Notes under the pieces: model-generated
Seen by the model: the letters and a program-made list of their open reading frames with translations, nothing else
Told to the model about the DNA's origin: nothing
Database searches by the model: none
Assembly (NCBI GenBank): GCA_041651415.1
Contig: JBAZJH010000001.1
Location: 215,713 to 279,712 of the forward strand
Length of the DNA: 64,000 nt
From: Minisyncoccota bacterium
GTDB taxonomy: Bacteria > Patescibacteriota > Minisyncoccia > UBA6257 > XYB1-36-10
Reading direction: 5' to 3'
Translations under genes and position numbers: made by a program
Shown here: positions 18,175-57,549 of the stretch, piece after piece
Position numbering within the stretch: the first letter of the stretch is position 1
Layout of the letters: each line of letters begins with the position of its first letter

Positions 18175-18882
18175 TTAGTTTTTTTTAATTATTCTTTTCT
18201 GATGCTGTTTGGAATCTTCCACAATGACTCCGTCTTTAATATAAATAATGCGTTCGGCGTGTTCCGCCACATCCGATTCGTGAGTGATTAAGATAATGGT
18301 TCTTTTTTCTTCTTCGTTTAATTTTTGAAAAGAGCCGAGAACTATTTCTCCGGTTTTTGAATCCAGATTGCCAGTCGGCTCATCCGCCAGAATTATTGCC
18401 GGGTCATTAACAAGAGCTCTTGCAATCGCCACTCTTTGAATTTGTCCGCCGGAAAGCTGATTGGAAAGATGATAAAAAAAATCTTTGTCCAAACCGGCGG
18501 ATTCCAGCGCTTTTTTAGCTTTCTCTTCCCTTCTTTCTTTAGAGAGTCCGGCATAAATCAAAGGAAGACAAACATTTCTTAAAACAGAAGTCCTCGGCAA
18601 AAGATTAAAAGATTGGAAAACAAAACCGATTTGGTTTTTTCTGATATCAGCCAATTCGTCATCAGTCAATTTGCTCATATCTTTTCCGTTCAAAAAATAA
18701 GAACCGTTAGTCGGCGTGTCCAAAGCTCCAAGAATGTGCATAAGAGTCGATTTGCCACTGCCGGAAGGTCCCATAATCGCCACAAATTCCCCTTCTTTTA
18801 TTTTGAAGCTAACTCCCCGTAGCGCCTGATAATCAAAATCGCCGGTTTTATATGTTTTTTCCACGTCTTTTATCTCAATCAT
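18175..18882 (-). CDS. ABC transporter ATP-binding protein (MacB/LolD-type)
   Basis: Walker A GPSGSGKST, signature LSGGQIQRVAIARAL, Walker B ILADEPTGNLD. Confidence 0.9.
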   Translation of the reverse strand: MIEIKDVEKTYKTGDFDYQALRGVSFKIKEGEFVAIMGPSGSGKSTLMHILGALDTPTNGSYFLNGKDMSKLTDDELADIRKNQIGFVFQSFNLLPRTSVLRNVCLPLIYAGLSKERREEKAKKALESAGLDKDFFYHLSNQLSGGQIQRVAIARALVNDPAIILADEPTGNLDSKTGEIVLGSFQKLNEEEKRTIILITHESDVAEHAERIIYIKDGVIVEDSKQHQKRIIKKN

Positions 18883-21093: not shown

Positions 21094-21157
21094 TGCCGGA
21101 TCGTCTAAAGGCCCGCCTCGACGAGCTGAGCTCGTCTCAGCGAGGCGGGTAGGACAT
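21094..21157 (+). pseudogene. duplicated 5' fragment of tRNA-Gln (first 26 nt) interrupted by a 38-nt palindromic insert
   Basis: TGCCGGATCGTCTAAAGG + [CCCGCCTCGACGAGCTGAGCTCGTCTCAGCGAGGCGGG] + TAGGACAT is identical to nt 1-26 of the intact tRNA-Gln at 21422. Similarity stops after that point. Confidence 0.55.
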
Positions 21158-21164
21158 AATAATA

Positions 21165-21413
21165 ATGCATATACTTCATCTGTTGAAAAGCATTAATTTT
21201 TCAAAAAGTTATATCGGTATAACTAATAATCCAGAAAGAAGATTAAAAGAACACAATTCTGGAAAAAGTTTTTACACAAAAAAGTATTCGCCATGGAAAA
21301 TAATTTATACCGAAGAATGTAAGAATTTCAAAGAAGCAAGAGAACGGGAAAAATTCTACAAATCAAGCGTAGGAAGAAGAGCTTTAAAAAAGATATTTGA
21401 TAAGTTAGGATAG
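21165..21413 (+). CDS. GIY-YIG nuclease-family small protein (UPF0213/YhbQ-like)
   Basis: …YIGITNNPERRLKEHNSG…TKKYSPW…EAREREKFYK… matches the GIY-YIG core (GIY…YIG…R…H…G…E). 82 aa. Bracketed by the tRNA-Gln 5' duplication. Confidence 0.8.
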   Translation: MHILHLLKSINFSKSYIGITNNPERRLKEHNSGKSFYTKKYSPWKIIYTEECKNFKEAREREKFYKSSVGRRALKKIFDKLG

Positions 21414-21421
21414 ATTATATT

Positions 21422-21495
21422 TGCCGGATCGTCTAAAGGTAGGACATGGGCCTTTGAAGCCCAGTATCTTGGTTCGATTCCAAGTCCGGCAGCCA
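21422..21495 (+). tRNA. tRNA-Gln (anticodon TTG), CCA encoded
   Basis: Folds by hand. Acceptor TGCCGGA/TCCGGCA with the U1:A72 pair typical of bacterial tRNA-Gln. D-stem GTCT/GGAC. Anticodon stem TGGGC/GCCCA with loop CTTTGAA. T-arm CTTGG-TTCGATT-CCAAG. Discriminator G, then CCA. Confidence 0.85.
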
Positions 21496-21639
21496 AAGTC
21501 AGCGTGGTATCATGGCAAGACCACCTTGCCTCAGTAATGCTCTAATTTCTCCTTCCCTAAAATGTGATACAGGCTGAGTGCCGTATTCAAGACAAAAAAT
21601 CACCGATTAATTTCGATGTTTTTTTGTTTTTTCTGGGAC

Positions 21640-21668
21640 TAGAAATTTATTTCTACATTTGATATGAT
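21640..21668 (+). promoter_or_regulatory. inverted repeat TAGAAAT-tt-ATTTCTA next to a TATGAT -10 element upstream of the XRE regulator
   Basis: Perfect 7-nt inverted repeat at 21640-21655, then TATGAT at 21663-21668, ~13 nt before the HTH gene start. Confidence 0.3.
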
Positions 21669-21680
21669 CTCCTCGAGCTT

Positions 21681-21884
21681 ATGTTTGATATATCAAAAAA
21701 CTTCGGGAAAAAAGTCAGGGAAATACGCCTAAGAAATAAGATGTCTCAAGCCGGTTTAGCCAAGATTCTTGGGGTACACCCCACCGATATTAGTGGTATC
21801 GAGCGCGGCATGAGAAATATGGCTCTTAAGAATATCGAAAGGTTAGCAAAAGCTTTGAACGTATCAGTTAAAGATTTACTCTAA
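21681..21884 (+). CDS. XRE-family helix-turn-helix transcriptional regulator
   Basis: …MSQAGLAKILGVHPTDISGIERGMRNMALKNIERLAKAL… is a classic Cro/C1-type HTH. 67 aa. Confidence 0.85.
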   Translation: MFDISKNFGKKVREIRLRNKMSQAGLAKILGVHPTDISGIERGMRNMALKNIERLAKALNVSVKDLL

Positions 21885-21891
21885 TAACACC

Positions 21892-22734
21892 ATGGCTCAA
21901 CCATTTAACTCAAACCTCGTAATAGAGGAAAAAATATCGGAAGCCGATTTTAAGGCCTATAGCGTCGGCTATGAGCAGAATCAATTCAGGTTTAAGCCTC
22001 TCGTCGATTTGATATGTGAGGTTATTCCCGAATTTGCGCTCGGTTACCATGAAGGCAAGGAGACGCCAAATACACAGATTGTTTCTAGACTTCGCGAAGC
22101 TGCGCGTACGATCTATGGTACTAACAAATTCGAAAATCGTGGTGAGTTTGGCGAGTTAATACTCCATCTATTACTTCGTGATTTCCACGACACGATTCCG
22201 TTAGTTGCCAAGATATATTTTAAAGATGCACAAAATAACGCCGTCCACGGATTTGATGGGGTACATATAACAATTGAACCAGGAAAGAAGAAGTTGTGGC
22301 TCGGGGAATCCAAGATTTACTCCGACGGCTTTGCAGGGATTTCTTCCTTAGCGGAAGATCTCGAAAAACATATTCAGGCAGACTACTTGAAGTCTGAATT
22401 CAGCCTTATAAAGCACAAGCTTCCTGCCAACACTCCCGAAATAGAATACTGGCGGAACCTTATGGATGAACATAAAAATCTCGACGAGATATTAAACGGA
22501 ATCTGTATCCCGATGGTCTGTACCTACTCAAGCAAGACAGTTAAAGACCATAACGCAATTACCAAAGATTATGTTAATGCTTTTACCGAAGAGTGCCAAA
22601 AACTGAAAGAGAAATTCGATGAGAAAAAGATCGCGACGAATGTCGAGGTAATTCTTATGCTTTTACCTATACCAGATAAAGAGGAATTGGTGACCGAATT
22701 AGACGAGCGATTAAAGGCCATGCGCATGGACTAA
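21892..22734 (+). CDS. PD-(D/E)XK-like protein, probable HamA (DUF1837-like) effector of a Hachiman-type defence system
   Basis: 280 aa directly upstream of an SF2 helicase. Candidate catalytic triad D122 (GFDGVH)…E139-S-K141 (LWLGESKIY). Size and gene order match the HamA-HamB architecture. The DUF1837 assignment is from memory of the family, not from a search. Confidence 0.5.
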   Translation: MAQPFNSNLVIEEKISEADFKAYSVGYEQNQFRFKPLVDLICEVIPEFALGYHEGKETPNTQIVSRLREAARTIYGTNKFENRGEFGELILHLLLRDFHDTIPLVAKIYFKDAQNNAVHGFDGVHITIEPGKKKLWLGESKIYSDGFAGISSLAEDLEKHIQADYLKSEFSLIKHKLPANTPEIEYWRNLMDEHKNLDEILNGICIPMVCTYSSKTVKDHNAITKDYVNAFTEECQKLKEKFDEKKIATNVEVILMLLPIPDKEELVTELDERLKAMRMD

Positions 22735-22741
22735 AAAATTT

Positions 22742-24907
22742 ATGGATACCGAAGCCGCAAAATTGTTAATTACCGAGAATCGAGACCTGAGTTTCGAAGA
22801 GAGCTTTCAGCTTTCTCAGTTATGCTCCAAGCTATTAAATGTAAAAGACGCGTCCATTGCTGGACGCGATTTAATTATTCGAGTTTTGGATATTTGGGAA
22901 CGAATTCCCGCGTCAACTCAGACAATGTGGAAAGACTTGATCGAAGCCGCGGGATTCTATCCTTATCTTGAAAAACAGGATTTGTGCGGAGCCGGACTTT
23001 TGCGTCGCGAATATCATCGCTCAAAATATCTTTCGGAAGAAACCTACCTACACGCCGAACAGATGGATCTCTCCATCATGCTGGATACCTCAAACAGCTT
23101 GATAGTCAGTGCTCCAACAAGTTTTGGCAAGAGTAAACTCATTGAAGAAATCGTTGCCAGTGGGAAGTATAATAATATTGTAATCATTCAACCCACGCTG
23201 GCGCTTTTAGATGAGACCAGAAAAAAACTGAGAAAATATGCAAGCGACTACAACATGGTCGTTACCACCACCCAAAAGCCCCAAAGTGGCAAGAACCTCT
23301 TCTTGTTTACTGGCGAGCGCGTTGCGGAGTACGAGCATTTCCCAGCTGTTGATTTTTTTGTAATTGATGAATTCTATAAATTGAGTATCGAGCGCGACGA
23401 TGAGAGGGCGGCTTCACTCAACCATGCGTTGTATAAGTTGCTTAGCATGACTCACAAATTCTATATGCTCGGTCCCAGCATTAACTCCATACCGCCGGGA
23501 TTCGCTGAGCGACACAACGCTGTATGGTTTAAGACTGATTTTGCAACCGTTGCCGTAGATATTGAGCGGATTTGGGAGAAAGTCGGGAGAGCAAAAGAAG
23601 AAGAAAAAGAAGCGCCGTTATTTGACCTCTTAAAAGACCTCAGGGAGCCAACAATCATTTACTGCAGTTCGCCAAATAAAACAAACAAACTCACTCAAAG
23701 CTTTTTAAAATATGTACTATTGAATGAAAAGCTCAAATCTGAACTCCAAAATAATAATAACGACAACGCAATCGACTGGATAAAAGAGAATATTCATGAG
23801 GACTGGATTCTTGCGAAGTCGCTTAAGTACTCTATCGGAATGCATCATGGTGCACTTCCACGCCATCTTTCAAGCTCTATTATCGATTTTTTTAATAGGG
23901 GCGATGTACGTTATCTATTTTGCACCTCTACGTTAATTGAAGGGGTTAACACCTCGGCAAAAAATGTCGTCCTATTTGACGAGAAGAAGGGATCAAAGGC
24001 GATTGACTATTTCGATTTTAAGAATATAGCTGGCCGATCTGGCAGAATGAAAGAACACTTCATCGGCAAAGTTTTTCAATTTCATAAAGAACCTAAGCAA
24101 GAGGAGCTCGATATTGATATTCCACTTTTTACTCAAACCAATGCCCCTCTCGAATTACTTGTCCAAATTGATCCAAAGGAAATTAAAGAGACCGCGATGA
24201 AGAAGTTGGTTAAATTCTCAGAGCTAAGTAATTCAGTACAAGAACTTATAAAGCAAAACAAGGGAGTTTCCGTGGAAGGGCAAATGACAGTAATCGATAT
24301 TTTGAGAAATAATATCGATACTCTCCATGACAAGATTTCCTGGAGCGGCGTCCCATGTTATCCGGAACTGGTTTACGTCATTAGTTTGGCTTGGGAACAC
24401 TTTCGAACAGTTCGCTCGTCAGAGGGTGGCGCTCACAGTCCCAAACATCTCGCTACTCTCACGCTTCAATATATTGGCACAAAGTCGATCAGAGGCATGA
24501 TTGATAAGATGGTTAAAAGCGATTATTGGGTAGCGCACAGACCCGATATACAAGAACGCATTGAGATTATTGTGGATACGGTTTTGCAAGTAAACCAGCA
24601 CTGGTTTAGATATAAGCTACCGAAGTGGCTTTCTGTATTGTCTGAAATTCAGAAATTTGTGTGTCAAGAAAAAGGTTTGCAGTTTGGAGATTATGGCGTA
24701 TTAGCCAATCTCATAGAAAATTCTTTCTTGCCAAGTCATTTGGGAGTCCTTCTTGAATATGGCTTACCACCATCTGCTATTAGAAAAATTGGCGACTATA
24801 TTAAGGAAGAAATGGAGCCGGAGAAATTGATTGCGGCAATCAAACGCCTTGATCCAAATAAGTTAGGACTACTTCCTTACGAAGTAGACAAGTTAAAAGA
24901 TTTATAA
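22742..24907 (+). CDS. superfamily-2 helicase, probable HamB of a Hachiman-type defence system
   Basis: Motif I APTSFGKS, motif II FFVIDEF, helicase C-terminal domain with FCTSTLIEGVNT and motif VI NIAGRSGR. 721 aa. GC-richer codon usage than the core genome. Confidence 0.65.
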   Translation: MDTEAAKLLITENRDLSFEESFQLSQLCSKLLNVKDASIAGRDLIIRVLDIWERIPASTQTMWKDLIEAAGFYPYLEKQDLCGAGLLRREYHRSKYLSEETYLHAEQMDLSIMLDTSNSLIVSAPTSFGKSKLIEEIVASGKYNNIVIIQPTLALLDETRKKLRKYASDYNMVVTTTQKPQSGKNLFLFTGERVAEYEHFPAVDFFVIDEFYKLSIERDDERAASLNHALYKLLSMTHKFYMLGPSINSIPPGFAERHNAVWFKTDFATVAVDIERIWEKVGRAKEEEKEAPLFDLLKDLREPTIIYCSSPNKTNKLTQSFLKYVLLNEKLKSELQNNNNDNAIDWIKENIHEDWILAKSLKYSIGMHHGALPRHLSSSIIDFFNRGDVRYLFCTSTLIEGVNTSAKNVVLFDEKKGSKAIDYFDFKNIAGRSGRMKEHFIGKVFQFHKEPKQEELDIDIPLFTQTNAPLELLVQIDPKEIKETAMKKLVKFSELSNSVQELIKQNKGVSVEGQMTVIDILRNNIDTLHDKISWSGVPCYPELVYVISLAWEHFRTVRSSEGGAHSPKHLATLTLQYIGTKSIRGMIDKMVKSDYWVAHRPDIQERIEIIVDTVLQVNQHWFRYKLPKWLSVLSEIQKFVCQEKGLQFGDYGVLANLIENSFLPSHLGVLLEYGLPPSAIRKIGDYIKEEMEPEKLIAAIKRLDPNKLGLLPYEVDKLKDL

Positions 24908-24958
24908 AATCTATACTACAAGTAAATAAATTGCTATTATACTGCCTTAAAGAAAGGA

Positions 24959-25291
24959 TTGAAATTCATAGTCCGCAAAAAAGTATTAAAGCGCATAAGC
25001 ATTACCACACCCGATGGAGAGACGATAGAAGAAAAAGGAAATATGGATGTTGAAATAACAATTGATGCTTTACACTATAAAAGAAAGTACGACGCTGCAA
25101 TATTTTTTACCGGTGATTCTGATTTTTTAGCGTTAATAACCTATCTGCAGAGAGATGGAAAAAAAGTGTATGTATTTTCTTCGAAAAATAATATTTCCGA
25201 AGAGCTACGAACTGGAAGTGATGGGTATTCTGATGTGTTAATTATCACAAACGACATCTGGGGAAGAGAATTAAAACATCGTTTAAAATGA
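24959..25291 (+). CDS. truncated NYN (LabA/YacP-like PIN-fold) domain protein
   Basis: …MDVEITIDALHY…AIFFTGDSDFLALITYLQRDGKKVYVFS… matches the central and C-terminal NYN motifs (D…D and SGDSDF…GK.V). The N-terminal conserved Asp region is missing. Hairpin terminator at 25296-25320. Confidence 0.5.
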   Translation: MKFIVRKKVLKRISITTPDGETIEEKGNMDVEITIDALHYKRKYDAAIFFTGDSDFLALITYLQRDGKKVYVFSSKNNISEELRTGSDGYSDVLIITNDIWGRELKHRLK

Positions 25292-25519
25292 AAGCAACCC
25301 TCCTTGCGGAGGGTTGCCCTTGGATGTGATACCCTTCTAGTTATGGCTAAACCAGAAGATAGTATTAGTATAGCAAAAGATGAATATGCGAGTCAATAGT
25401 TATCCACAATAATATTTATAAATTAAATATATTTTAAACAAAAAACCCCGAGAGAGTCGGGGTTTGAAAATTGCAATCGTATCTCTTCGATAAACTCAGA
25501 GAATAAAAGAACTAAAAAA

Positions 25520-26440
25520 TCAGAACATAAATTGAAGGCGGGCGAGGAAGCGGCAGTCCCTATCCCCTGCGAGCGGAGTTTCAACATCCGCCGTAAGGGA
25601 AAGATTCTTTTTGAAGCTGAACAAGCGAATGCCGTTTGCCCAAATTAAATCAGAAGATTTTCCTTCTCTTGCGCCTAAATCCAGACGGCTATGAAGTTCC
25701 AGCCATTTTGCCGGATAATAGGCGCCAAATAGATAACCACCGAAAGAGTCGCCGCGCAAGTCGTTTGAAGAACGATAAAGCGCGACACGAAGATAAGATT
25801 CGTTATTAATCTTCCAAGTGCCGTCCATTCCAAAATTCTGATATTCTTCGGAAATTTGGATGTTCTCGGAAAGAGAAAAATTATCACCAAACTTCTTCGT
25901 CAATCTAGCGGAAGTTTCCGGATATTCAAAACTTTTTGAATTATCGAAGGAGTATCCGGAACTGGTAGTGATGTCAGTTAATAAACTCCATCCGTTTTCA
26001 AACGCTCCCACAAACTGAATGCCGTAACCGTAAGAACGGAAAGGTTCAGTGAGCGGACAACTAATTGTTTCCATTTTAAACGGAGGGATACTGGAAAAAA
26101 ATGCGCTAGTGACAACACGACCGAATCTTATCTTCCAGTTCTCATTTAAACCGCGTTCCAGATAAAATTTTCTTAGCCAGTTTATCTCTTCGCGATTCAT
26201 ATGGGCGAAGTTTTCTTCCATAACCAGCTTCCAATCATCGTCGAATTTAACCGTCTGCCAAGTTCGGAAATAAGGCCAATCGAATTCCGGGTCGGCATTT
26301 TCGATGAAAGTAAGCTGAGTATAACCGGCGATATCAATTGAAACACCGGCAATAGAGACGGAGCCGATTAATGGCTCTTGCGAGAAAGCGACAGGAATTG
26401 CGAATAAAGCAACAATAACGAAAGACAACAGAACTTTCAT
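25520..26440 (-). CDS. secreted beta-rich protein of unknown function (porin-like C-terminal Phe)
   Basis: Cleavable signal peptide (…AFSQE). Alternating hydrophobic pattern. Ends …ARLQFMF. GC-richer than the core. Confidence 0.4.
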   Translation of the reverse strand: MKVLLSFVIVALFAIPVAFSQEPLIGSVSIAGVSIDIAGYTQLTFIENADPEFDWPYFRTWQTVKFDDDWKLVMEENFAHMNREEINWLRKFYLERGLNENWKIRFGRVVTSAFFSSIPPFKMETISCPLTEPFRSYGYGIQFVGAFENGWSLLTDITTSSGYSFDNSKSFEYPETSARLTKKFGDNFSLSENIQISEEYQNFGMDGTWKINNESYLRVALYRSSNDLRGDSFGGYLFGAYYPAKWLELHSRLDLGAREGKSSDLIWANGIRLFSFKKNLSLTADVETPLAGDRDCRFLARLQFMF

Positions 26441-26452
26441 TTTCTTCTCCTT

Positions 26453-27748
26453 TTAGGCCGCGCAAGCGGCAGGAGAAGAAATAAAAATATCTCTTGCCTC
26501 TTTAGGCGGCGCTCTCGGTTGAACTACGATTAGAAATTCTCGGTTTAAAACTTTTTTCACACTGGCTTCGGATATTATGAAATCCGGAGCTTGAAAAATG
26601 ACCGGTTCAATTCCGATAAAACAAAGATTAATTTTCTTTATTTTTGGAAGTTTGAATGAAGAAAAAACGTTTTTAAAAGAAATTCCTTCATTCGATTTCA
26701 AAACTTCGTTTTCGGAATCGATTTGACTGGAGATAAAAACGACCGGTTTTGAGATTTGCGATTTTGCAGACACAAGGCTGAAAGAGCCTAAAATCCAAAC
26801 GGCAAAACCAGCCAGAGCCGGGCGATAAACCAGTTCTTTTTCCGCTTTAGTGATGGCGTCTTCAAAAGACAAGACAGGCGCCATTACTTTTGCCCAGATG
26901 GCTTTTTCTTCAAGAGCAGTCGGCCGATAACCGGATTCTTTCGTTTTCAGAAATTCACGCAAAATTTTCCGATAACATCTTAGAGAATTTGCCGTTTCCG
27001 AAACGAAAATAAGTCCGAATGGGCCGAAACAACCGGCATAAAAAATCTCACGGTAATCGAAATAAACTTTTTCGATTACCGCTTTAAAAGATTTTTTAAC
27101 AAACCAGACGTTCAAAAGCAGGCAAAAGACAGACGGAAAAACCAGAAGGTAATACCACTTTAGAAACCACAGCCCGACGGCAGGCCAATCAATATCAACC
27201 CGCATACAATCCGGCTGAGGCGTTTCCGCAAAAGCCTGCATCACCTTAAAGTTAAGTATGACTTTCGCATGTTCTTTTCGAGCTAAGTCATTTTCCGCAA
27301 AAAGTTTTTTATAGCTTTCTGGGGTTTCTTCCGGAGGCTGCCAATTATCGACAAAACATTCTCTTGCTTTGTCCATTATAAAAGAAGTTTTATCTGTCCA
27401 ATCAACTTCAATTTTTGAACAAAATTCAACAATTTGATAATTGAAAGAAGTGGCTTCCTTCAAATCAAGATTTTTTACTTCCACTTTCTTTTTGACTTGG
27501 TCCATTACTTGGGAGATTTCAGCAATGGTTTCTTCGTAAGCAAGAGTTCCCGGGAGAATAATATTTTTTTGTCGTTCTTCAATGCGCTTACTAAACCAAG
27601 ACCAGTCAATAAAGAGAGCGATAAAGGAAATAAAAATCAAAAGAGAAAAAAATGTTTGCCAAGAATTGACAGGTTCCTCGTTGCGCCATTGGTTTTTTTG
27701 CGGATGCGGATAAATTTCAGTTCCAAACCAGTTATATCCGTAATACAT
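26453..27748 (-). CDS. polytopic membrane protein of unknown function
   Basis: 431 aa with several predicted transmembrane segments. No recognisable catalytic motif. GC-richer. Co-directional with and 12 nt upstream of the previous gene. Confidence 0.4.
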   Translation of the reverse strand: MYYGYNWFGTEIYPHPQKNQWRNEEPVNSWQTFFSLLIFISFIALFIDWSWFSKRIEERQKNIILPGTLAYEETIAEISQVMDQVKKKVEVKNLDLKEATSFNYQIVEFCSKIEVDWTDKTSFIMDKARECFVDNWQPPEETPESYKKLFAENDLARKEHAKVILNFKVMQAFAETPQPDCMRVDIDWPAVGLWFLKWYYLLVFPSVFCLLLNVWFVKKSFKAVIEKVYFDYREIFYAGCFGPFGLIFVSETANSLRCYRKILREFLKTKESGYRPTALEEKAIWAKVMAPVLSFEDAITKAEKELVYRPALAGFAVWILGSFSLVSAKSQISKPVVFISSQIDSENEVLKSNEGISFKNVFSSFKLPKIKKINLCFIGIEPVIFQAPDFIISEASVKKVLNREFLIVVQPRAPPKEARDIFISSPAACAA

Positions 27749-27873: not shown

Positions 27874-28608
27874 TCAAAGTCCGAGAGAAGAGAGAAAAGT
27901 TTTAAGCTCATCCCCTTTTAGTTCGCGGAAGGAGCCGGCGGGAATATTGCCAAGCTTGATATTCATAACCCGCACTCGCTTCAAGTCGCGAACAGTCAGA
28001 AAAAGCGCTTCGCACATTCTTCTGATTTGATGTTTTTTGCCTTCGGTTAAAACTATCCTAAAAGAACGCTCGCCCATTATTTCCACCTTGCAGTTTTTGG
28101 TTTTGAAATCATCAAGAACAATTCCTTCTTCCATTTTATTTTTAAAGCTTCCGCGAAGCTTTTCTTTCACTTCAACCACATATTCTTTTTCGTGAATGTA
28201 TTTGGGATTTAAGAGGCGGTCGGTAACGCGGCCGTCGTCGGTTAAAATAATAAGTCCGTGAGAACTTTTATCCAGACGACCAACCGGAAAAACGCCTTCA
28301 AAAGGGACAAATTTTTTAATGTCTTTTTCACCGAGTTGCGGAGAATGAGTAATCACTTCTCTCGGCTTATTAAAAGCGTAATAATGGAAAGTTTTGGGAT
28401 TTTTATTCTGTTTAACTTCCACTTTATCCCCTGCTTCCACTTTAGCGCCAAGAACGGCAAGACGGCCGTTAATAAAAACTTTTTTGTTTTTGATAAGCTC
28501 GTCTGCGCCAAGTCTCGTGGAATAGCCATGCAAGGCAAGGTATTTATTGATGCGAACAGGGAATTCTTCTTTTTCCATACGGAAGGCAGTATAACACCAA
28601 ATTGTCAA
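27874..28608 (-). CDS. pseudouridine synthase, RsuA/RluB family
   Basis: N-terminal S4 domain (RINKYLALHGYSTR…) and catalytic GRLDKSSHGLIILTDDG motif. Confidence 0.85.
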   Translation of the reverse strand: MTIWCYTAFRMEKEEFPVRINKYLALHGYSTRLGADELIKNKKVFINGRLAVLGAKVEAGDKVEVKQNKNPKTFHYYAFNKPREVITHSPQLGEKDIKKFVPFEGVFPVGRLDKSSHGLIILTDDGRVTDRLLNPKYIHEKEYVVEVKEKLRGSFKNKMEEGIVLDDFKTKNCKVEIMGERSFRIVLTEGKKHQIRRMCEALFLTVRDLKRVRVMNIKLGNIPAGSFRELKGDELKTFLSSLGL

Positions 28609-57168: not shown

Positions 57169-57549
57169 TGTCATTCCAGCGAAAGCCTGCCTGCCGGTAG
57201 GTATGGCTGGAATCTAGGTTAATTGATAAATTTATAATATAAATCCTCCCATTTTGGGTTCTCTTTTTCAATAAGCCCCAATTTCCAATTTCTTTTCCAT
57301 GCTTTCAAATTTTTTTTCTCTTTTTATTGCATCGTAAGCATTAACAGTTTCTTCATAATAAACAAGCTTATCAACTCCGTATTTTTTAGTGAATCCTTCA
57401 ACTAGTTTATTTTTATGCTCTCCAATCCTTCTTAAAAGATCAGAGGTAACGCCAACATACAAGGTACCATTTCTTTTACTGGCTAAAATGTAGACGTAAT
57501 AAGATTTCATAAATAACTTTCTGGATTCCCGCCTTCGCGGGAATGACAG
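57169..57549. mobile_element. ~380-bp mini-element: GIY-YIG gene bounded by 14-bp terminal inverted repeats CTGTCATTCC(A/C)GCG, each end forming an ATTCC…GGAAT hairpin
   Basis: Left end CTGTCATTCCAGCG at 57169-57182. Right end CGCGGGAATGACAG at 57536-57549, whose reverse complement CTGTCATTCCCGCG matches 13/14 positions. The left hairpin also embeds a family-2 palindrome (GCCTGCCTGCCGGTAGG). Confidence 0.5.
57268..57510 (-). CDS. GIY-YIG nuclease-family small protein (UPF0213/YhbQ-like)
   Basis: MKSYYVYILASKRNGTLYVGVTSDLLRRIGEHK…TKKYGV…LVYYEE…REKK… is a textbook GIY-YIG core. 80 aa. Confidence 0.85.
   Translation of the reverse strand: MKSYYVYILASKRNGTLYVGVTSDLLRRIGEHKNKLVEGFTKKYGVDKLVYYEETVNAYDAIKREKKFESMEKKLEIGAY

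Follow-up and report, generated by a model that had tools for sequence, protein, structure and literature searches.

Organization of the locus

The stretch of DNA analysed here (hereafter the window) comprises 64,000 nucleotides of contig JBAZJH010000001.1 (assembly GCA_041651415.1, positions 215,713 to 279,712), from a metagenome-assembled genome (MAG) of an uncultivated Candidatus Paceibacterota, i.e. a bacterium of the candidate phyla radiation (CPR). On its forward strand, which carries all the features given below unless otherwise indicated, three genes follow one another with 7-nt gaps: one for a 67-aa helix-turn-helix (HTH) protein of the XRE type (21681-21884), hamA (280 aa, 21892-22734) and hamB (721 aa, 22742-24907), the last two encoding the predicted effector nuclease and sensor helicase of a Hachiman defence system. 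We consider it likely that these genes form a C-hamA-hamB operon, in which a type I Hachiman is under the autorepression of a controller (C) protein of the kind known from restriction-modification (R-M) systems, that this operon stands 3' of a tRNA-Gln gene, and that the truncated NYN open reading frame (ORF) lying downstream is the stump of a resident gene.

The ORF scan found the four co-directional ORFs exactly where an earlier interpretation, made from the nucleotide sequence alone (the sequence-only reading), had placed them. That reading was also right about the CPR host and about the tRNA-Gln: the intact gene (anticodon TTG) is detected by ARAGORN at 21422-21495 and scores 61.7 bits with the Rfam tRNA model, the only Rfam family that passes between 20.5 and 26 kb. 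A psRNA14 match over the promoter region of the C gene reached 30 bits for a gathering score of 60 and was dismissed. The left end given by the sequence-only reading, 21094, is not that of the tRNA-Gln itself but corresponds to a duplicated 5' tRNA fragment upstream of a GIY-YIG ORF, described in the last section. In the NCBI annotation the three genes already bear the labels "helix-turn-helix transcriptional regulator", "DUF1837 domain-containing protein" and "helicase-related protein". The locus is present as well in ENA ERZ27247363 (same contig), and a 3.6-kb contig from a second sample/run (L002) carries an identical C-hamA-hamB.

Identity of the hamAB pair

The sequence-only reading had proposed a HamA-HamB pair on the basis of a ~280-aa protein with a D122, E139, K141 triad, preceding a 721-aa superfamily 2 (SF2) helicase with motifs I, II and VI; a DUF1837 profile search and a structure prediction were to decide on the former. 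The profile search of 21892-22734 gives a match to Pfam PF08878 HamA (DUF1837) with an E-value of 3.2e-58, covering the whole profile (positions 1-230 of 230), and the PADLOC HamA1 models are matched with E-values as good as 1.7e-89. HamA has more than 1000 homologs, mostly of ~280 aa. The three residues of the triad are present and invariant in an alignment of 31 sequences sharing 56-93% identity, as is an upstream motif, R83-G84-E85-x-G87-E88; the predicted fold is that of a PD-(D/E)XK nuclease, with its D...(D/E)xK active site.

HamB, an SF2 helicase of the Ski2/Hel308-like kind, matches PADLOC HamB1 over its full length (4e-232). Motifs I (APTSFGKS, 124-131), II (DEFY, 209-212) and VI (AGRSGR, 430-435) were all located, and motifs Ia, III and V as well. 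Its best relative in the Protein Data Bank (PDB) is AbpB (8zue_B, 4e-89, residues 21-688), followed by the helicases Pol theta, Ski2, Hel308 and Brr2; HamB of Escherichia coli ECOR31 is matched at just 1.7e-7. Residues G129/K130/S131 of motif I align with G127/K128/S129 of AbpB, whose mutation abolishes defence (PMC11914072). A housekeeping identity such as RecQ or RecG was considered and rejected: HamB reaches no such model and shows only a sub-threshold similarity to Hel308-like proteins. Of the two outcomes that the sequence-only reading regarded as fatal to its proposal, a first protein foreign to DUF1837 or devoid of a nuclease fold and a helicase of a housekeeping family, neither was encountered.

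Related hamAB loci, 136 in number, were gathered from genomes and metagenomes with an alignment as the query, a single HamA query of genome contigs having given nothing. In practically all those whose contig reaches far enough, hamB is found downstream of hamA which, along with the full-length Pfam and PADLOC matches, bears out the two-gene Hachiman architecture. Members of this large clade are scattered over the taxonomy (Bacteroidota, Planctomycetota, Nitrospirota, Asgard and other archaea, another Paceibacterota), which is the usual pattern of a horizontally mobile defence system. By homology, the hamAB pair is thus a canonical type I Hachiman, genuine but ordinary, and within reach of existing models.

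Its position among the described types can be specified. Type I-A Hachiman, known from E. coli ECOR31 and DEC14B (Tuck et al. 2024 Cell; Cui et al. 2025 Nat Commun), has a catalytically active DUF1837 HamA, and the fold and active site predicted here are those of this type. In type I-B, represented by AbpAB of E. coli K-12 (PDB 8zue), AbpA is a 565-aa protein associating an N-terminal Cap4 nuclease with a catalytically dead DUF1837: its residues 313-433 align with HamA, but F and E stand at the positions of E139 and K141, in agreement with the published description of this type (PMC11914072, PMC12278908). By contrast HamA of the window, with 280 aa, consists of DUF1837 only, without Cap4, and its active site is kept. 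Since this site is intact in HamA and dead in AbpA, the window pair is a relative of the AbpAB clade with DUF1837 as its only HamA domain and with its catalytic residues preserved. In the scheme of Cui et al. its HamA architecture classes it as type I-A, with however a short helicase resembling AbpB: HamB of ECOR31, whose sequence similarity is remote as indicated above, has 1174 aa versus 721 aa here, and the OB-fold region, reported for III-A HamB proteins only, e.g. that of ECOR31 (PMC13064477), finds no counterpart in the matched region of our HamB. No ORF for hamC (DUF3223), the third gene of type II Hachiman, is present, the flanking ORFs being the HTH gene and the NYN fragment. Finally, the locus differs from type I-A Hachiman by the presence of an upstream controller gene.

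The Hachiman call itself adds little, as PADLOC or DefenseFinder would report hamAB and NCBI labels exist. The recruitment to Hachiman of an R-M-type controller, with an operator specific to its family, is the only new element of this locus, and is dealt with in what follows.

The controller gene and its candidate operator

The 67-aa protein consists of one HTH domain (Pfam HTH_3, 2.4e-13, residues 12-65). Its best PADLOC matches are "Control_protein" models (1e-18) and its top PDB matches are C.BclI (5.6e-10), C.AhdI (1.6e-9) and C.Esp1396I (4e-6). It falls in a tight family of proteins of 67-68 aa, 70-81% identical, whose named members come from Parcubacteria, Zambryskibacteria, Uhrbacteria and Giovannonibacteria. 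Judging from these matches, it is a member of a CPR family of R-M controller proteins. Like C.BclI, C.AhdI, C.Esp1396I and C.PvuII, which have 74-82 aa, it is made of a single XRE HTH, and the genetic arrangement is also shared: the C gene lies immediately upstream of and co-directional with its cargo, its promoter contains a palindromic operator, and little leader precedes its start codon. The differences are the cargo, Hachiman, the family-specific half-sites TAGAA/TTCTA with a 6-nt spacer, and the presence of a single box and not a pair. Moreover no R-M system is there to be controlled, since hamA and hamB follow the C gene and the window contains no methyltransferase.

The candidate operator, TAGAA-ATTTAT-TTCTA (21640-21655), corresponds to the perfect inverted repeat that the sequence-only reading had seen near the -10 element: TAGAAAT-TT-ATTTCTA, a 7+7 palindrome (TAGAAAT/ATTTCTA) ending 7 nt upstream of the -10 and overlapping the -35 position. 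The motif TAGAA-N6-TTCTA occurs once in the window, for 0.12 occurrence expected by chance. A consensus scan detects in this region a single promoter-like site (21640-21668), with a -35 TAGAAA, a 17-nt spacer and an extended -10 TGaTATGAT, i.e. 9 matches out of 12 and a TG before the -10. The ATG of the C gene lies 12 nt past the -10, so that the transcript would have a very short leader or none. The same scan finds no promoter-like site between the C gene and hamA. As the single box covers the -35, next to an extended -10, a simple autorepression of the C-hamA-hamB operon can be inferred.

Among all the loci fetched, TAGAA-N6-TTCTA is confined to those of the C family, where it stands 41-76 nt before the ATG of the C gene. 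The genomic context was looked up for seven members of this family. In every locus examined a defence-type cargo begins 3-50 nt downstream of the C gene, in the same orientation, and the cargos are diverse: a type III R-M system (Mod+Res; L140-147, L151-158, L160-161), a type I-like R-M system (L170-172), an SNF2 helicase with a DUF2779 protein (L173-176) and a Hypoth_Ymh gene (L159). The C proteins preceding these cargos, of 66-68 aa, are 74-81% identical to that of the window (74-79% for those before the type III and type I-like R-M systems). In L148-150 the cargo is again hamA-hamB, behind an 81%-identical C copy, and blastn aligns this locus with the window at ~80% nucleotide identity from just inside the C gene onward, through hamAB; this sister cassette follows a tRNA-Arg(CCG), i.e. 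it occupies a different chromosomal site. A serine recombinase is found divergently upstream in six C-family loci, and a tRNA is often nearby.

All cargo types other than Hachiman are preceded by a composite dual box, TAGAA-N6-TTCTA-TA-TAGAA-N6-TNCAA, which recalls the pair formed by a strong and a weak C-box in classical C circuits (PMC12707154). Between these dual-box loci the DNA homology begins at about -75 nt and stops where the C gene ends, which delimits a portable module of ~280 bp. In one of the R-M loci (L160) the consensus scan detects nothing like a sigma-70 promoter before the C gene.

One of these loci deserves a separate mention. At ~5207-10201 of L173, the gene for an SNF2-family helicase of 1172 aa, followed by that for a DUF2779 protein of at least 496 aa, adjoins a large serine recombinase; the SNF2 and DUF2779 genes of L173-L176 are a candidate two-gene defence cassette.

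The HTH gene is not a general component of Hachiman, since tblastn finds no homolog of it in ~134 other hamAB loci. Enough upstream sequence was available for 126 hamAB loci, from which 84 short upstream-neighbour ORFs were scanned with Pfam: only two encode an XRE protein, of another architecture (L085, L086). In the closest long relative (84% HamA identity), hamA is preceded instead by a type I R-M operon. This scarcity, together with the fact that small XRE genes are very common, might suggest that the HTH gene encodes a host regulator without relation to hamAB and lies there by chance, hamAB having its own promoter. We find this very unlikely, given the 7-nt gap to hamA with no promoter-like site in it, the maintenance of C-hamA-hamB as a block at a different site in L148-150, and the constant position of the C family just upstream of defence-type cargo.

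Small HTH genes of another kind also occur in front of Hachiman. In L080 (3182-3382) and L093 (4808-5008), a 66-aa MerR/HTH_17 protein, excisionase-like, is encoded by a gene overlapping the start of hamA by 7 nt; in this independent hamAB clade, Hachiman has recruited a small HTH protein of a second type, without relation to the first.

Alternatively, the HTH protein could be the equivalent of a type II antitoxin, neutralising HamA or HamAB by protein contact in the manner of PezA or HipB. Weak, sub-threshold similarities to the HTH domains of the antitoxins HipB, Y4mF, MqsA and PezA (NCBIfam) go in this direction, and so do the mild toxicity of Hachiman (PMC12278908) and the occurrence of PezAT before hamAB in Streptococcus (PMC13064477). 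But in 67 aa the protein has room for its HTH only, with no extra toxin-binding domain; its family precedes at least five unrelated cargos, so that no specific partner could be common to all; a conserved DNA palindrome accompanies this family; and ~125 related hamAB loci do without this HTH gene. Such a role is therefore quite improbable.

According to a 2025 review (PMC12707154), C proteins are described for type II systems and for one type I system, where the C protein represses the whole operon; a control of type III R-M by C proteins is not mentioned in it, and C proteins of non-R-M systems have not been described either. A C-like XRE protein is also invoked in the Ambrosia preprint, but for an RM-like system. 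In our literature searches we came across no Hachiman reported to be under a C protein.

The truncated NYN gene

Downstream of hamB, an ORF of 110 aa (24959-25291), whose sole start codon is TTG, belongs to a 5'-truncated LabA/NYN gene (24935-25291) that retains residues ~69-186 of ~186. The sequence-only reading had noticed that the N-terminal region with the catalytic Asp is lacking, and this is indeed so: the ORF covers positions 54-142 of the 145 of the Pfam NYN profile, and residues 1-68, including the conserved FIDASN motif with the catalytic Asp, are nowhere in the window. The relatives are LabA/NYN proteins of 185-191 aa, 70-83% identical, from many CPR classes. Homology to the intact genes starts at 24935 for the protein (residue ~69, tblastn) and at 24946 for the DNA (blastn); the latter extends to 25378, i.e. 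85 nt past the stop codon, and includes a GC-rich hairpin (25294-25317) just past this codon, which belongs to the native 3' flank of the NYN gene. On the other side, homology to loci having hamAB only (L003, L061) stops at 24900-24910 (blastn). On its right, the hamAB module thus ends within ~40 nt of the point where the NYN gene is broken, at a junction located in 24908-24946.

The sequence-only reading had put forward the idea of a regulated or auxiliary-nuclease variant of Hachiman, in which the four genes would work together, the NYN protein as a nuclease assisting HamAB and the HTH protein as a regulator. The four genes are certainly co-directional and close together; PADLOC has NYN models built from defence contexts, one of which is matched by the fragment (2.7e-9); and full-length NYN genes often border variable or defence regions, L166 for instance having a diversity-generating retroelement (DGR), a res gene of type III and another NYN gene nearby. 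Nevertheless, a NYN homolog stands beside hamAB in none of the ~136 related loci. The part that is lost is the one carrying the FIDASN catalytic Asp; what is left begins abruptly ~27-39 nt past the hamB stop codon and runs into its own 3' flank; its GC content at third codon positions (GC3) is 0.29 against 0.43-0.46 for hamAB; its TTG start abuts a purine-rich stretch without the spacing of a ribosome-binding site; and the degree of conservation of its relatives across CPR classes is that of a resident gene. We consequently hold the participation of NYN in the system for extremely unlikely. What is left amounts to the 3' two-thirds of a resident gene conserved in CPR, which was cut where the cassette ends on the right; the ORF is no auxiliary nuclease, and it is probably a pseudogene. 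The regulator half of the idea fares better and can be made more precise: the HTH protein belongs to the R-M C family, which has a conserved operator, and is co-inherited with hamAB in L148-150. More generally, an "extra nuclease" beside a defence operon can be the collateral damage of an insertion.

In other genomes, intact NYN genes follow a tRNA or border a variable region. The left flank of the operon (21496-21680) shows no similarity with the tRNA-NYN intergenic regions of intact loci. In L162-L165 the intact gene is found at ~1.0-1.7 kb, the contig or fetched stretch beginning ~1 kb upstream of it (this is the contig start in L162-L164; L165 is reversed); tRNA-Asn was detected in both assemblies scanned, L162 and L163. 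In L166 (5047-6576), a pair of divergent NYN genes separates the DGR/type III res region from housekeeping genes. It may be that variable regions of CPR genomes are bordered by NYN genes.

Proposed functioning and control of the system

The mechanism of HamAB, its mild toxicity and the need for its restraint are documented in E. coli (PMC12278908; PMC11914072). By analogy with these homologs, HamB of the window would be an ATP-dependent SF2 helicase forming a complex with HamA and surveying DNA; damaged DNA or 3' single-stranded ends arising from infection would trigger the helicase activity and free the HamA nuclease (D122/E139/K141), and the latter would degrade DNA indiscriminately, aborting the infection and protecting against phages. 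Since Hachiman both senses and causes DNA damage, its dosage matters. In our proposal a dimer of the C protein would bind TAGAA-N6-TTCTA over the -35 of the extended -10 promoter, and this autorepression, covering the whole operon, would keep the mildly self-toxic HamAB at a low and homeostatic level, while allowing a burst of expression upon entry into a naive cell. The C gene with its operator would constitute a portable module, driving other cargo in other CPR genomes, often beside a serine recombinase.

The only natural device for the control of Hachiman described so far is PezAT, in Streptococcus (Pez-Ham; Tian et al. 2025, PMC13064477). There too, an autoregulated XRE-type module located upstream, in the same operon, represses hamAB: the transcript is lowered ~5-fold and the protein ~50-fold, which balances protection and cost. 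But that module is a toxin-antitoxin pair (PezA, 158 aa, and the toxin PezT) attached to a type III-B Hachiman of Firmicutes; the window has only a C protein of 67 aa, without toxin, on a different Hachiman clade and in CPR.

Several points weigh against this interpretation. The dual box of the other C-family loci is typical of C circuits that activate, then repress; with its single box the window may obey a different logic, and an activation by the C protein is conceivable. The sister locus L148-150, although it has the same C-hamAB organization, is devoid of the TAGAA-N6-TTCTA palindrome, and its presumed recognition helix differs, HPMDISGIERGVQN instead of HPTDISGIERGMRN in the window (T-to-M and R-to-Q changes), so that the operator assignment is not valid for every member of the C family. 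No alternative palindrome was seen by eye upstream of the C gene in this locus (L148, 396-487), where no systematic search was run. As for the promoter, the occupancy of the operator and the sign of the regulation, we infer them from geometry only. The insertion at tRNA-Gln has its own difficulties. In an island targeted to a tRNA one expects an integrase or recombinase gene and, at the far boundary, a second copy of the 3' end of the tRNA as a direct repeat; no recombinase ORF exists between 20.7 and 27.8 kb, and no second copy of the tRNA-Gln 3' end was found with up to 3 mismatches allowed, a generic repeat search giving chance-level repeats only. In a close relative (L167, ~86% nucleotide identity), synteny with the window runs from 46464 down to 27855, is lost there and does not resume, hence there is no empty site to delimit the insertion.

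These losses might also be taken as signs that the locus is a decaying, non-functional relic, a cassette brought by an element since lost and heading to pseudogenisation: the NYN neighbour is truncated, no recombinase or att repeat is left, the operator would have gone from two boxes to one, and a relic tRNA fragment is nearby. Yet none of the three ORFs is shortened and their invariant and catalytic residues are all preserved, an identical copy is present in an independent sample, and in the sister locus, at ~80% nucleotide identity, the three ORFs are open too, which indicates purifying selection. A relic is very unlikely in these conditions.

Beyond the window, we put forward a broader proposal, with some reserve as it seems to us plausible but somewhat less than an even bet: CPR bacteria would circulate the ~280-bp unit (operator or operators, promoter and C gene) as a plug-in module, recombined before at least five unrelated defence cargos and cross-regulating them. 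Mutual exclusion and cross-regulation are known for type II R-M systems controlled by C proteins. If the proposal is true, the shared operator would allow the C protein of a resident cassette to pre-set the expression of an incoming one, resulting in cross-regulation or mutual exclusion between defence systems, and the window would provide the first C-type controller governing Hachiman. The recruitment of such a controller to Hachiman extends C proteins beyond type II and type I R-M systems, and the locus offers a testable example of a modular regulation exchanged between defence systems. Known defence systems being under-detected in CPR genomes, the C gene with its operator could also serve as a cheap marker to find more cargo of this kind in them.

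Genomic surroundings

The sequence-only reading had described the region as a defence island, with a GC-richer codon usage. This is not what we find. The GC content and GC3 of hamA (0.416 and 0.459) and hamB (0.412 and 0.429) are within ~1 standard deviation of those of the window ORFs of at least 200 aa (0.407 +/- 0.043 and 0.384 +/- 0.067). Run over all window ORFs, PADLOC yields HamA and HamB as the sole system, and the surroundings are housekeeping genes: hamAB is a solitary cassette, not an island. A PADLOC "mad3" match was rejected, as it corresponds to an ABC-transporter ATPase (18178-18882) with a generic ATPase similarity and not to a defence gene. The scarcity of defence systems in CPR, also put forward by the sequence-only reading, is true per genome; but a survey of aquifer genomes reports that, per Mb, defence systems are densest in CPR, above all in Paceibacteria (PMC12259885), so that a Hachiman here is not surprising.

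The position next to a tRNA, pointed out from the start, recurs in independent loci: the sister cassette L148-150 is flanked by tRNA-Arg, and the MerR-type hamAB loci L093 and L080 independently abut the 3' side of tRNA-Gln genes. The insertion of the window cassette would likewise have taken place at tRNA-Gln. The end of the synteny with L167, at ~27855, falls just past the stop codon of a pseudouridine-synthase gene (27874-28608, minus strand); beyond it L167 has YceG, patatin and BipA genes that are not in the window. This suggests that the variable segment may be larger than the Hachiman cassette. In the window, two hypothetical genes without family matches, of 431 aa (26453-27748) and 306 aa (25520-26440), replace YceG, patatin and BipA.

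Upstream of the intact tRNA-Gln lies an arrangement that we mention as context. The first 18-mer of this tRNA has exactly two copies in the window. The additional one opens a relic 5' tRNA-Gln fragment (21094-21157), in which nucleotides 1-18 (21094-21111) are separated from nucleotides 19-26 (21150-21157) by a 38-nt GC hairpin (21112-21149; -31.2 kcal/mol, z = -3.0); then come a small GIY-YIG nuclease ORF of 82 aa (21165-21413; Pfam GIY-YIG 1.4e-16, labelled "GIY-YIG nuclease family protein" by NCBI) and the complete tRNA-Gln. The same order is seen in the otherwise unrelated hamAB locus L093 (8398-8858, minus strand): an 18-nt 5' tRNA fragment of different sequence (TGGGGGG...), a hairpin, a GIY-YIG gene, a complete tRNA-Gln and, in addition, a 3' tRNA-Gln fragment, whose acceptor strand (CCCCCCA) pairs with the far-upstream 5' fragment. 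The GIY-YIG protein of L093 is 35% identical to that of the window and has the same position relative to tRNA-Gln. In these two instances, a tRNA-Gln looks to have been split at 18/19, in the D-loop, by a GIY-YIG element carrying a replacement tRNA. To our knowledge, no GIY-YIG element splitting a tRNA-Gln has been described.

The window contains a second small GIY-YIG ORF (57268-57510, minus strand, 80 aa), ~36% identical to the first. It sits between an AP-endonuclease-like gene and fpg/mutM, with no tRNA nearby, and a GC hairpin (CCCGCGAAGGCGGG) is found directly upstream of its ATG, so that small hairpin-associated GIY-YIG genes recur in this genome.

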